Positions 7,392 through 14,557 of a stretch of DNA of 64,000 nt are shown here, in pieces (position 1 is the first letter of the stretch; each line of letters starts with the position of its first letter). The stretch is taken from positions 320,001-384,000 of the forward strand of contig CAWHVC010000005.1 of assembly GCA_963832745.1 (NCBI GenBank), given 5' to 3'. The position numbers and the translations under genes are program-made. The DNA is from Candidatus Bathyarchaeota archaeon. GTDB taxonomy: Archaea > Thermoproteota > Bathyarchaeia > Bathyarchaeales > Bathycorpusculaceae. The notes under the pieces are model-generated. The model was not told where the DNA came from. It searched no databases and saw nothing but the letters and a program-made list of their open reading frames with translations.

Positions 7392-8357
7392 TTAAAAGCC
7401 TAAAGATTCTGAGAGAACTTTTGGATTGATTTTTCCTGCCTTGAACGTTCTGCCAGTTTTTGCATTATTTATCATTATAACGGCTGGCGCGAACAGGTTA
7501 TGGTCGATTTTGTAGAAATCTTTGTCTGCTTCACGGAAAATCTGCAGAAAAGGCTTACCATAATCTTTAGACACCATGGAGGGGGTTTGGTTTGCGATTT
7601 CTTGCAGTTTCGCTTCATCGTCATAGTCAACTGCGCAGAAAACTGTTCCACCATACAAGATGGCGTCGTTGGTGCGTGCCATTGCAACCTCAAAATCGAG
7701 GCATGAAGGACTAATTGGCGCGTAACCCAGAGCATATTTTATGCATTTAGGGTCTAAACCGACCGTATTAAGCTTATGAATCCCCACTTCGACAACACGA
7801 CCAGTGACTTGGGTTAAACCGGCAATGCTTGCTGTTGGAGCAACCATTATAATTTGGTTTTCTGGGGCTACGTTGGTGTTTTTTGTGACTTTTTCAATCA
7901 GCCCGTCGGTTGGCAGCTGGTTGCTTTCAAGGGCGATTACGGTTTTGTCACATTTGTCTGTGTAGCCGATTTCTTCGTAAACTTCTTTGGGTTTAAGAGC
8001 TATGGCGCGTGCGGGACCTGAACCGATAGCAATGTTGCCGTTTTCTTCTTTGATGCGCCAACCTGCAAACTGGCTGCCTAAACAGGCGATTGCTGGAAAA
8101 TCGGTGGTAACAGTGACAGATGGAAAATCGATATCGCCGTATGATTTGAAGCCTATGTCGACTTTTCCGGCTGCGCCAAGGCAGAGTTCGGTTAAGATTT
8201 TGCCTGCCTCAAAACCTCCAGGGGCTTTTACGCCTGCGTCAATAATTGTTGCTCCAGCTGTGGATTTTGAAACGGCTACACGGTAATATTCGGGGTTATC
8301 TAGAAGTTTTTGGGCTAATTTGAAAGCCAACAGGTTTACGCTTAAAGCTTTGACCAT
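7392..8357 (-). CDS. mch: methenyl-tetrahydromethanopterin cyclohydrolase
   Basis: LSVN, IIDAG, ACLGSQFAGW, GSGPARA, NDAILYGG, FYKIDHNLFAPA motifs. Confidence 0.95.
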   Translation of the reverse strand: MVKALSVNLLAFKLAQKLLDNPEYYRVAVSKSTAGATIIDAGVKAPGGFEAGKILTELCLGAAGKVDIGFKSYGDIDFPSVTVTTDFPAIACLGSQFAGWRIKEENGNIAIGSGPARAIALKPKEVYEEIGYTDKCDKTVIALESNQLPTDGLIEKVTKNTNVAPENQIIMVAPTASIAGLTQVTGRVVEVGIHKLNTVGLDPKCIKYALGYAPISPSCLDFEVAMARTNDAILYGGTVFCAVDYDDEAKLQEIANQTPSMVSKDYGKPFLQIFREADKDFYKIDHNLFAPAVIMINNAKTGRTFKAGKINPKVLSESLGF

Positions 8358-8474
8358 AATGAATTCACCATTAAGCTAAAGATATCTTGTTGACTGGAGA
8401 AATATTAAAGGTAACGCCTCAGAAAAATTTTTTGTTTGATGCAAAATCAAGTTTTAGTACAATGCAAATTTGTT

Positions 8475-8496
8475 TTAGTCAAGGAAGTTTGACGGA
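8475..8496. promoter_or_regulatory. inverted repeat TTAGTCAA-N6-TTGAC immediately upstream of BRE/TATA
   Basis: TTAGTCAAGGAAGTTTGACGG followed by AAACCCTTTTTATA; same layout at 52335 and 30880-30922. Confidence 0.6.
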
Positions 8497-8539
8497 AACC
8501 CTTTTTATATTAAAAACTAACGCAAAAATGTGGACGACT

Positions 8540-11360: not shown

Positions 11361-11442
11361 TATTATCACGGGTATTTTGAAAGCCTACGAATTGTTTAAA
11401 CGTTATTGTAAGTCAACAAACAATAATTAAGAGGCATAAAGT

Positions 11443-12462
11443 ATGCTGGCACGTGAAGGCGACTTAATCAAGCATAAAAGCAACGTAATTTTTGACGTTA
11501 AAGGCTTAGTTCATCCTGAAGGCAAAATTATAGCATTCCCCCGTTACATTCCCGACCCAAAAGGTCCACGCCACACTGAAGACGTCAGTTACGGCAAAGT
11601 CTACAGCCTCGCAGAACGATTCAAGTTCCTAACAGAAAACCTGCCACACCTAATCATTTTTGATGAAGTCTTAGGCGAAACCATGTGCGAAGTCCCCATT
11701 AACGAAATAATCCAGCATTTTCAGCCGCAAGAAAAACTTGCAGCCCTCCGCACGGGAAAGCCTCAGAACATTTTTGAAACAAAAGCCCTTCAACTTGCCA
11801 CAGACCTCCAACAGGAAGCAGACATTCCATGGAGCGCCATTGGAATTTCAGGGTCAATCCTTGCAGGCTTAACCACCACAACCTCCGATATTGACCCCTT
11901 AGTTTATGGGGAAGAAAACTGCCGAAAAGCTTATGCTGCCATGCAACGCATGCTCAAAAATGGGCACACAAACTTCAAACCTTACACCACCGAGGAACTA
12001 AAAACCCTCTACGATTTTCGTTCAAAAGACACCCACATGAGCTTTGAAGACTTTCAACTCGTTGAGAACCGTAAAGCCTTCCAAGGCATGTACCAAGGTA
12101 CTGACTATTTTGTGCGTTTCGTCAAAGAATGGCCTGAACTACATGAGCAGTATGGCGACGTCTACTACAGCAACGCGGGTTACACAAAAATCACTGCAGA
12201 AGTCAGCGACAAAACCGAGGCACTATTCACGCCCTGCACGTATCAACTGGAAAAGGTCAAAATTGTTAGTGGGCCAAAACTGTCGCCCGTCAAAGAAGTG
12301 TCGTCTTTCCGTGGCAGATTCTGTGAGCAAGCCGAAAAAGGCGAAACAATCACAGCCCAAGGAAAAGTGGAACTGGTGACAAATAAAAAGAGCAGTAGCA
12401 GGTATTATCGTTTGATACTTGGCGGCAAACCTGACGATTACATGGTGCTCGGCGCGGTTTAA
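11443..12462 (+). CDS. pol-beta-superfamily nucleotidyltransferase (COG1665-like), paralog 1
   Basis: GISGSIL...SDIDPLVYG; N-terminal REGD..FDVKGLVHP; OB-like C-terminus GETITAQGKVE. Confidence 0.8.
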   Translation: MLAREGDLIKHKSNVIFDVKGLVHPEGKIIAFPRYIPDPKGPRHTEDVSYGKVYSLAERFKFLTENLPHLIIFDEVLGETMCEVPINEIIQHFQPQEKLAALRTGKPQNIFETKALQLATDLQQEADIPWSAIGISGSILAGLTTTTSDIDPLVYGEENCRKAYAAMQRMLKNGHTNFKPYTTEELKTLYDFRSKDTHMSFEDFQLVENRKAFQGMYQGTDYFVRFVKEWPELHEQYGDVYYSNAGYTKITAEVSDKTEALFTPCTYQLEKVKIVSGPKLSPVKEVSSFRGRFCEQAEKGETITAQGKVELVTNKKSSSRYYRLILGGKPDDYMVLGAV

Positions 12463-13544
12463 TGCAGTGCTTTTAGTACTTGGTCGTAGTAGCGTGGGCA
12501 GTAGGTTAGGGTGATTTGGTAGAAGCAGTTGTCTGGGTTGGGTGATTGGACTTCTTCAAGGTTACCTTCGACAATGATTGTTTCGTCCTTGCGTACTTGT
12601 TGACGGAACTCTTCCATATAAGAGAACACTCGCGTGACTTCTTCTGCACCGCTTGGCCCCTCCAACACTTCCAGTGGCTCGATACCGTAGACTGAAGGAA
12701 TAAATGGTCCATCATCGTCGCTGGTGACGCGTGCTTTGATTTTTGCCCAACCCCGCTTGGTAATACAGCGTCTTGAATCATACTCGTTTATGACTTCGTC
12801 CCAAGCTTTGACCGGTTCAAACTCGGCTTTGATTATTCTGCCGCTATGCTTGCGGTCGTCATATAAGCCGTAGATTTGTTTGCGGCGTTGATGCCAAATA
12901 AAGTCTTTAACGTCAAAATTGGTGAAAAGCCACCGTTTGCCATCCATAACGTGGTCGGAGGAGAATTCGTTGCTTAACCCCGAAGATGGGTCAGCGTAAA
13001 GGTCCTCGAGAGTTTGACACATTTTGGCGTTTTGTTTTTTGCCGTAAATTGTAAAGTCTATGTCGGAGTATTTTGGGTGATGGAAACCATGAAGCATGGA
13101 ACCAAAAACACCGAAATCGGATGTTTGCAGTCCTGAGTTGTCGGTGGCGATTTTAAGTGTGCGTTCCATTGCAGCGAGCAACTCGTCGGTTGGACCTTGC
13201 TTTAGCAACTCAGCCAGTCGTTTCTGTGGTTCATGAACTTCCATGATGTCCTTGTCTTTAACGCCAACTAGTTCGACACCGAGCATTTCGTGGAAAACAA
13301 GGTATTTTGGGTATTTTTTGGCGACAAGCTTCATGCCTTCATCATTATAGAATTTGTAGAAAAGCTCGTTTCTGCCTTCACGGGGCGCTCGGGGGTCGTT
13401 TGATTGGAAAATTTTTGAGGAAGCGTATTCTGCATCGCAAAAATACGCGTTAGGCGGGTGAGAGTAACCGAAAACGCGGAAGAGCAAGCCTTCCTCGGTT
13501 AAGATGCTGTCGCGGTCACGCAGTTTTAAACTGTTGTCGGCCAA
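12459..13544 (-). CDS. pol-beta-superfamily nucleotidyltransferase (COG1665-like), paralog 2
   Basis: GVFGSML...[32 protein letters not shown]. Confidence 0.8.
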
Positions 13545-14557
13545 ATGTACTCTTCCTCCGACGTTGCAGTGCCTACGACTACTTGATAGAAGACTTCGTC
13601 GCTTGTGGTGGATTCGACTCTTTCAAGTTTGCCTGCGACTTTTATTTCGCTGCCCTGCTTGGCTATGTTGCGGTAGCAGCCAATGTTTGAAACTACTTGA
13701 ACAGGAATTTTGTCGATTGGCAGTTCGGATTCGGGGTCTTGGGGTTTGTAGCCGCTGATTTTGTAGGTTGCGGGTCGGTACATTGTTTCGCGGTCGCTGC
13801 AGATTGTGGCTTGGAACCGTATTGGGTCAAGAGGCGTATACTTGTATTGACCAAACTTTGTTTTAACCTCGTCGAATTGGCGGGTGGCGTTGTACATGTA
13901 AATTTTGCCTTGATAGCGGCCTTGGAATTTGCGGGCAGCATCCAACCTGTTACCAACAATATAGGTTAATTTGGCGGCGTTAACAAGCCTTTCAACGGCG
14001 GATTCTACCCTGCGGAAATTGTCTGTACCGTAGACGACAAAGTCAATGTCTGAGTGTGGCGCATGCATGTTAAGCGCCAAGGAACCGTGCAAACCCATAT
14101 CGGACAATTCGACGCCTGATTCTTTACTTATTAAAGTGATTAATTCTAAAGCCTTGGCCTGCAAATCATCAAGTTTAGGTAAACTTTGAAGCCAAACAAG
14201 ACGGTCTCGGGGCACAAAAACTTCTTCGATGCGGTTAAGCGGCGCTGTTATGAGTTCTTTGCCGCGATTCTCATCATAATAGAGGTAGTCTGGGAAGTTT
14301 TTGCGGAAGGCTTCAATGAAGGTTTGGTAGTTTTTGGCTGTGTAGAGTTTTTCGGCGCGGAACAGTTCGTTTTTGCCGTAGTGCCAGGTGCGTTCAAGCA
14401 TTTCAACGTTGAACATGTCCTTGTATTTGGCGGGGATGTATTTGAGAAATGCAAACACGCGGTCGCCGGGGTGCTCGTACCCAAACGTGTTCATGATGAA
14501 GCCGTCGGTGGTGACAAAAGTGTCGCCGTCCATCGGAACCCAATTCTTGACTACCAT
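13526..14557 (-). CDS. pol-beta-superfamily nucleotidyltransferase (COG1665-like), paralog 3
   Basis: GLHGSLA...[33 protein letters not shown]. Confidence 0.8.

Follow-up and report, generated by a model that had tools for sequence, protein, structure and literature searches.

The citG-nucleotidyltransferase locus

The window analysed here is a stretch of 64,000 nucleotides (64 kb) from the genome of a Candidatus Bathyarchaeota archaeon (GCA_963832745.1, contig CAWHVC010000005.1, positions 320,001 to 384,000), and our subject is a group of genes in which mch, for methenyl-tetrahydromethanopterin (H4MPT) cyclohydrolase, and a citG-like gene lie close to three genes for strongly diverged, paralogous nucleotidyltransferases (NT1, NT2 and NT3). 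An earlier interpretation of the window made without database searches (the sequence-only reading) had singled out this group, and the positions and identities that it gave for the five genes were borne out by Pfam and TIGR matches and by the mutual similarity of the paralogues. As detailed below, CitG and the nucleotidyltransferases form a real and conserved module, which we consider, with a confidence a little better than even, to complete or re-tailor the side chain on a one-carbon (C1) carrier of the methanopterin type. The core of the locus comprises the following features:

7392-8357, minus strand: mch, methenyl-H4MPT cyclohydrolase (TIGR03120, 384.7 bits against a cut-off of 228.8), a user of the cofactor and a conserved neighbour
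10410-11369, minus strand: CitG-like triphosphoribosyl transferase of the archaeal/Orf7 type (PF01874, 245 bits, positions 2-283 of 284)
11370-11442, no strand: AT-rich citG-NT1 intergenic region of 73 bp, by its sequence a probable shared promoter
11443-12462, plus strand: NT1, subfamily A of the MJ1086 family, GS-x9-SDID at residues 137-151
12459-13544, minus strand: NT2, subfamily B of the MJ1086 family, GS-x10-SDID at residues 148-163, E241 and E243 invariant
13526-14557, minus strand: NT3, subfamily C of the MJ1086 family, GS-x9-SDID at residues 158-172

NT1 is divergent from citG across 73 bp when counted from the GTG at 11369 and across 82 bp when counted from the ATG at 11360, NT3 and NT2 are co-oriented and overlap by 19 bp if NT2 starts at the TTG at 13544, and NT2 meets NT1 tail to tail with an overlap of 4 bp, an arrangement that agrees with the sequence-only reading. 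Searching the whole 3.02-Mb genome (99% complete) with tblastn uncovered no extra copy of the three paralogues, citG or mch. An Rfam scan of positions 6000-15500 gave nothing up to E 0.1, and a scan for sigma-70 promoters and terminators, with models not suited to archaea, stayed at chance level. For positions 7392-14557 no RNA sequencing run was listed.

The three paralogues belong to an old nucleotidyltransferase family

NT1, NT2 and NT3 share 24-26% identity with one another over 347-360 columns (E 1e-23 to 1e-30) and 28-30% with M. jannaschii MJ1086 (UniRef100_Q58486, annotated as 'Uncharacterized protein MJ1086') over 336-344 columns (E 1e-31 to 1e-47), with which they have the same motif and three-domain layout in common. 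The MJ1086 family counts 1392 representatives at E<=0.001 in a library clustered at 50%, and its occurrence in M. jannaschii, Asgard archaea and Acidobacteriota means that it is not lineage-specific. The hG[GS]-x9-13-Dh[DE] motif of the pol-beta superfamily is present in all three proteins, and the catalytic G-GS/SDxD-G is invariant in 132 aligned members, where G134, G137, S138, D149, D151, G156, P264, G307 and E310 (NT1 numbering) never vary; PF01909 matched 118 of these members at E<=0.1. The motif had been written as GS-x8/9-SDID, which is right as to its integrity in each paralogue and wrong as to the spacer (9, 10 and 9 residues in NT1, NT2 and NT3), and of the proposed N-terminal signature, (R/D)xD...G..HP, the G..HP holds while the first part reads E-G-D, D-R-D and D-G-D.

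An AlphaFold model of NT1 (predicted local distance difference test score, pLDDT, of 97, from the 132-sequence alignment) predicts a beta-rich N-terminal domain (residues ~1-100), a pol-beta core (107-231) and an oligonucleotide/oligosaccharide-binding (OB) fold (~240-339), in keeping with the OB-like C-terminus that had been suspected. The best match of the modelled core is PolX (3au2; Z 7.9, a middling value, rmsd 2.8, 87 residues aligned), and nearly all of the 50 matches listed are pol-beta-fold proteins. The modelled C-terminus matches the OB folds of single-stranded-DNA-binding protein (SSB), MCM and replication protein A (RPA) (best Z 8.6, rmsd 3.1, 84 residues aligned), and the N-terminal domain (1-100), hardly covered by the wide structure searches, has no clear fold match. 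Foldseek with two models returned nothing at E<=0.001, a search of PDB sequences with a three-paralogue profile nothing under E 0.16, and the ESM Atlas only hypothetical archaeal clusters; a predicted complex of NT3 with NT2 scored 0.02, which speaks neither for nor against binding. Among 7247 candidates we found no longer nucleotidyltransferase fusions (647-2000 aa), which is weak evidence.

These folds bear on the idea that the nucleotidyltransferases act on nucleic acids, tailing or repairing RNA or DNA ends with the OB domain holding single strands and the link to C1 genes reflecting shared ancestry. The OB matches to SSB, RPA, MCM and editosome proteins (Z 7-8.6) and the core matches to PolX, pol beta, terminal uridylyltransferases, poly(A) polymerase and the CCA enzyme (Z 5-7.9) would suit it, but these Z values are middling and mirror the content of the PDB, and NT2 and NT3 have acidic OB domains (pI about 5). 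A phage search with NT1 found nothing, and PADLOC gave sub-threshold matches only (E about 0.008). As the idea also leaves unexplained a fusion to FolK, a position in the mpt clusters of remotely related archaea and bacteria and the presence of the family in 97 of 98 genomes with CitG (see below), we regard it as highly unlikely.

A FastTree phylogeny of 125 sequences, midpoint-rooted and with the crenarchaeal sequences on long branches, resolves four old groups, A (with NT1), B (with NT2), C (with NT3) and D, with SH-like support of 86-100; the cluster representative of MJ1086 itself (P0085) forms a separate branch outside A-D, and subfamily D is absent from this genome. The strand that follows the catalytic loop tells the groups apart, reading FF[IV]RxVK in A, K[AV]EFEPVK in B, FxxNAxR in C and FS[IV]HP[VI]K in D.

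The family tracks CitG and RFAP synthase across Thermoproteota

We profiled 201 Thermoproteota genomes, each at least 90% complete, and found the MJ1086 family in 108, CitG in 98, mch in 49 and MptE in 106. The family and CitG occurred together in 97 genomes, the family alone in 11 (three of them by weak matches, E>5e-4), CitG alone in one and neither in 92. RFAP synthase matched in 132 genomes, of which the 81 with E<1e-15 were kept and the 51 weak ones, mostly partial and GHMP-kinase-like, were dropped; a family member accompanies full-length RFAP synthase in every one of these 81 genomes and mch in 46 of 49. Neither CitG nor the family is present in 45 MptE-positive genomes, so the presence of the family is not tied to pterin synthesis itself: it tracks CitG and RFAP synthase, marks of modified folates, and not mch or pterin synthesis in general.

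The same genomes speak to a further possibility, namely that CitG makes triphosphoribosyl-dephospho-CoA and that the nucleotidyltransferases attach it, or a nucleoside monophosphate, to a protein carrier, a prosthetic-group function that the sequence-only reading had also put forward. The CitG fold, a weak match of the MdcG model to NT1 (residues 82-172, E 0.0015) and weak MntA-type adenylyltransferase matches in 22 of the 132 aligned members lean that way. Against it, the citrate-lyase/malonate acyl carrier protein (ACP) PF06857 is found in none of the 201 genomes (the E. coli control was positive), the window CitG is of the Orf7 type and far from that of E. coli, and among the common neighbours of NT1 loci, with open reading frames of at least 90 aa covered, there is no conserved small carrier gene. 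PF03802 and PF10620 were not among the 25 Pfam families listed, nor CitX among the fold matches listed. We give this protein-carrier function very little credence.

Gene order around NT1 is conserved in relatives

Among genomes of the same genus and order the family is present in 37 of 41, and exactly three matches were found in 21 of 24 genomes of the genus (the others having five pieces in two cases and none in one, a genome 71% complete). In the NT1-centred loci, the best 80 of 541 and several of them ending at contig edges, citG lies near NT1 in 68 of 80 and mch in 40 of 80. NT2 and NT3 are both near in 65 of the 79 loci with a clear NT1, citG is divergent and at most 1.6 kb away in 59 of 79, and NT3 and NT2 abut in 55. 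Genes for formylmethanofuran dehydrogenase accompany them (fwdD, fwdB, fwdA and fwdC in 32, 31, 28 and 24 of 81 loci), and mobB, fdhD, ftr and S-component genes are further neighbours.

Two more genes of the locus are peripheral to the module:

6753-7349, plus strand: S-component-like membrane protein of the energy-coupling factor (ECF) type, possible pterin importer (accessory, weakly supported)
8387-10393, plus strand: NosD-like, secreted beta-helix protein of 668 aa, between mch and citG

The first matched PF12822 (E 1.7e-4) and the folate-family S component TIGR04518 (E 0.0068), both under their cut-offs; its cluster is present in 10 of 81 loci, and a different membrane-protein cluster occupies the same spot in 20 of 81. 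The beta-helix gene, present in 2 of 81 loci including this one, was rejected as a member of the module and taken as a local insertion. Many Bathyarchaeia loci (several of L079-L105) show the trio followed by mobB and the cell-division genes cdvA, ESCRT-III and Vps4, a neighbourhood that is probably positional.

Distant neighbourhoods and a FolK fusion

Twenty family regions from 16 other genomes were inspected for more remote associations. Three lie inside methanopterin-biosynthesis clusters (L161, L162 and L163), and a fourth (L153) joins the family to citG:

L161: NT-NT-citG-DUF447-mptE-flavoprotein-DUF1464-PTPS-mptG-mptH
L162: mptG-DUF447-mptE-mptH-mptA-mptD-NT-NT
L163: NT-NT-citG-DUF447-mptA-mptE
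L153: DUF1464-NT-citG

In L154 the nucleotidyltransferase gene stands beside a weak CitG match and in L171 and L172 among ftr, mtd, fwd and mch genes, while the remaining 13 of the 20 regions have unrelated neighbours. The usual pair in biosynthetic clusters is one of subfamily A with one of subfamily D. In the metagenomes (best 80 of 511 loci) citG was near in 38 of 80 loci, while 41 have an S-component-like gene nearby and 15 have genes for the pterin head or DUF447/DUF1464; S-component and head-pathway genes shared none of the 80, a count limited by short contigs. Two of these loci (L243 and L269) read fwdB-fwdA-ftr-fwdC-mch-ligase-citG-flavoproteins-NT, and three (L215, L217 and L222) hold a FolK-MptA fusion, PTPS, a flavoprotein gene, mptH or citG and two nucleotidyltransferase genes; by GC content and gene order all five look bacterial. 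The latter three are high in GC and, with FolK-MptA(FolE2), PTPS, mfn, mptH and the two nucleotidyltransferase genes, amount to a near-complete methanopterin/methanofuran cluster.

A fusion of FolK (HPPK) to a nucleotidyltransferase of subfamily A, ~500 aa long, makes up 17 of the 120 clusters listed (P0040 and P0187-P0202); unfused close relatives of these fusions are named from Acidobacteriota. Taken together, these neighbourhoods and the profile tie the family to citG, mch, fwd and mpt genes, which agrees with the pterin branch of the sequence-only reading: the missing co-occurrence and synteny with citG and mch that would have refuted it were not what we observed. Its interpretation as a whole is partly supported. 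DUF1464 and DUF447 recur in mpt clusters beside citG and the family (L161, L153, L220, L223 and L232) and are, from such sequence context, candidates for other side-chain steps such as ring opening, reduction or dephosphorylation.

The window CitG belongs with the methylotroph Orf7 proteins

The window CitG falls below every CitG and MdcB equivalog cut-off (25-76 bits against 272-477). It aligns with the CitG of the Azoarcus island at 31% identity over 293 columns (E 6e-20) and with E. coli CitG over 105 C-terminal columns only (E 1e-4); nearer by sequence to the island protein than to citrate-lyase CitG, and linked to mch, it is of the methylotroph Orf7 type. Its matches on plasmids comprised 24 records, 23 proteobacterial and one haloarchaeal; the Azoarcus plasmid gene follows mch and a ligase gene and so occupies the orf7 place of the proteobacterial order mch-orf5-orf7-fae, as that order is given in PMC3615186.

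This plasmid, which carries the full island with its Orf7-type CitG, has no MJ1086-family member, and the dephospho-H4MPT (dH4MPT) of M. extorquens is described as having neither the phosphate nor the hydroxyglutarate (PMC8141765). CitG without a nucleotidyltransferase thus accompanies a tail that ends at the ribose, which fits the chemistry proposed below. While 36 plasmid records have mch, 21 match NT1, and these are all from Streptomyces. The Streptomyces cassettes (L282:9156-13017 in NZ_CP103061.1; L283:10105-13869 in NZ_CP109257.1) consist of an unknown protein, a kinase resembling aminoglycoside phosphotransferase (APH) and a nucleotidyltransferase, with a histidine phosphatase or an S-adenosylmethionine methyltransferase alongside. 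They suggest that the MJ1086 family is not confined to pterins, and this setting, too, points to small-molecule substrates.

A proposed two-step tail synthesis

CitG moves the triphosphoribose of ATP to a hydroxyl in alpha linkage with release of adenine, CitX and MdcG let a hydroxyl displace pyrophosphate, and methanopterin bears on its ribitol an alpha-ribofuranosyl 5-phosphate that is joined by a phosphodiester to 2-hydroxyglutarate. The late steps of the scheme that White proposed in 1996 reportedly include a triphosphate intermediate. From the gene identities, folds, subfamilies, co-occurrence, synteny and fusion we infer substrates and reactions as follows. The Orf7-type CitG would first load the 5-triphosphoribose of ATP onto the pterin-aminophenyl-ribitol at its terminal hydroxyl, with loss of adenine; an acceptor hydroxyl (that of 2-hydroxyglutarate in classical methanopterin) would then attack the alpha-phosphate, drive out pyrophosphate and leave the tail phosphodiester. 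The enzyme of this second step would be a pol-beta nucleotidyltransferase, most likely of subfamily A (NT1), and NT2 and NT3, old and separately conserved, would probably handle the same tail or pieces of imported cofactor. Inversion at C1 would take ATP to the alpha and phosphoribosyl pyrophosphate (PRPP) to the beta product, which favours ATP as donor.

The proposal has close parallels. CitG with CitX in citrate lyase and MdcB with MdcG in malonate decarboxylase likewise pair a CitG-family transferase with a pol-beta-fold transferase and would share the two-step chemistry, but the acceptor here would be a small molecule where those systems modify a protein. The window transferases, of 340-360 aa, differ from CitX and MdcG in an additional N-terminal domain and in the OB fold, and no specific similarity to either was detected; and unlike the CitG/CitX systems, ours has one to five paralogous matches per genome and no ACP in 201 genomes. 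The proteobacterial dephospho-H4MPT island (mch-orf5-orf7-fae, mptG, orf19-22) also places mch by an Orf7-type CitG and has DUF447, mptG, mptH and flavoprotein genes in common with the archaeal clusters; it differs (Azoarcus) in lacking an MJ1086-family gene and in a product that PMC8141765 gives as free of phosphate and hydroxyglutarate. In the scheme of White (1996), going by PMC3087415 and PMC3334880, no enzyme is assigned to the step that ribosylates the ribitol or to the one that attaches 2-hydroxyglutarate via phosphate, and a listing of 2011 has about seven methanopterin enzymes or proteins as unknown (PMC3087415). We found no publication that gives CitG homologues or the MJ1086 family a place in methanopterin synthesis, though subscription papers or supplements may hold one.

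Several observations weigh against this two-step synthesis. White's scheme uses a second PRPP where our proposal uses ATP via CitG, and the published route names the second PRPP and alpha-ketoglutarate as sources of the tail (PMC3334880). The MdcG model NF002332 reached 18.1 bits against a cut-off of 126 and E<=0.1 in 3 of the 132 members, and hhalign of the family profile with a single E. coli CitX sequence gave a probability of 0.8%. The third catalytic carboxylate, D256 in pol beta, would map near F223 of NT1 by the end-points of the structural alignments, and an acid at the position so deduced is found in subfamily B only (NT2 E241); the NT1 OB fold, moreover, is similar to OB folds that bind single-stranded DNA. 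In the phylum profile, the family is missing from 3 of the 49 genomes with mch; once the three weakest family matches (E>5e-4) are dropped, 24 of 105 family-positive genomes have no full-length RFAP synthase match and 59 no mch; 38 genomes with CitG and a nucleotidyltransferase have no MptE; and as kin share genes, the raw counts overstate independence. The bacterial control covers plasmids, not chromosomes. Full-length family members (E 1e-50 to the family profile) occur on the 21 Streptomyces plasmid records, where the gene adjoins the APH-like kinase, and the two regions inspected contain no pterin genes. One citG-DUF447 pair from a haloarchaeon has no adjoining nucleotidyltransferase gene, and the control rows for H. 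volcanii show CitG, mch and an RFAP-synthase homologue in an organism that PMC8305020 takes to use tetrahydrofolate. The genome under study adds to these difficulties: MptA, FolE, MptE, FolK and MptD were not detected in it, and its mptH is broken up among three overlapping frames, perhaps through decay or an assembly error.

Subfamilies B and C and a possible salvage of imported pterins

Calling B at E<1e-89 and C at E<1e-115, thresholds placed at clear score gaps, we found B in 37 of the 201 genomes (34 of them with mch) and C in 26, always together with B. These distributions bear on the idea, close to that of the sequence-only reading, that the three paralogues work in series and add several nucleotide or phosphoribosyl units to a longer, lineage-specific pterin tail. 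The constancy of three copies in the genus and the clustering of NT2 and NT3 with NT1, both described above, are in its favour, as are subfamily-specific invariant residues that surround the active site and the view (PMC3334880) that modified folates differ mostly in the tail appendage. The distributions of A, B and C differ, however, B and C often lie apart from A in genomes of other orders, and the pair in biosynthetic clusters is usually A with D; sequential transfers by the trio are thus not supported, and we hold this to be quite improbable. We also know of no cofactor structure from Bathyarchaeia.

C is almost confined to genomes without MptE: 25 of 26 lack it, and among mch genomes C occurs in 22 of 34 without MptE and in 1 of 15 with it. 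Among 25 genomes of the order only one had MptE, and three of the head families searched were in none of five. Outside the locus this genome has an mfn cluster, fwd, ftr and a DUF447-mptG-mptH run (L198:843-4834; G000:C1:617342-621333), the last followed by an S-component-like gene. The near-confinement of C to MptE-less genomes, together with the lack of detectable head genes here, suggests that B and C belong to the salvage or re-tailoring of imported pterin, a pattern that few lineages underlie. The proposed import of foreign pterins and stripping or swapping of their tails would resemble the cobamide remodelling of vitamin B12. The full combination, in which the MJ1086 family is the missing phosphodiester-forming family that acts after an ATP-using Orf7-type CitG, and B and C of Bathyarchaeia, most of which would be unable to make the pterin head, serve pterin-tail salvage with an ECF S-component, we consider doubtful.

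The surroundings of B and C, examined in 20 regions, are mixed. Three genomes of a single family (L182-L184) have an mfnE/F/D-like run four genes away from C and B, in L189, L192 and L172 ftr, fwd or mtd stand beside them, and the rest have housekeeping neighbours (thrRS, FBPase, his genes); this may reflect a role in methanofuran synthesis or a looser link to C1 genes. A division of labour is conceivable in which CitG and NT1 make the pterin tail and NT2 and NT3 serve another C1 cofactor or step, either the terminal side chain of methanofuran or an activation of imported pterin that replaces MptE and FolK. The coincidence of B with mch, the constant company of B for C and the mfn, ftr, fwd and mtd neighbours are in line with it, and the lack of MptE in nearly all C genomes fits the activation variant. 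The housekeeping neighbours, though, speak against it; a simple replacement of MptE would need the RFAP synthase for which 16 of the 26 C genomes have no full-length match; methanofuran to our knowledge contains no phosphodiester; and one genome with mfnB and ftr (G029) has neither B nor C. We judge this division of labour unlikely.

Between a D and a C nucleotidyltransferase by ftr we noted, in two genomes, a stand-alone asparagine-synthase-like domain without a glutaminase (L172:8579-9634 and L193:6381-7442); it has a homologue in this genome (G000:C3:355709-356665) and is, by sequence, a possible amide ligase for a C1 cofactor.

Methanogens and anaerobic methane oxidisers have methanopterin as their central C1 carrier. 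If the two-step synthesis is correct, the CitG homologue and the MJ1086 family would complete the methanopterin pathway that is wanted for synthetic methylotrophy, offer a target for methanogen inhibitors and account for the dephospho form in bacterial methylotrophs. It would also predict new pterin structures and cofactor cross-feeding in Bathyarchaeia, which are among the most abundant sediment archaea.

Elsewhere in the window, positions 16733-18301 hold a tandem pair of paralogous regulators with winged-helix (DUF7347) and membrane domains, and a heliorhodopsin gene (33823-34647; PF18761, 300 bits) lies beside genes for SOUL heme-binding and pyridoxamine-oxidase-like proteins and beside a cobalamin (cbi) operon.

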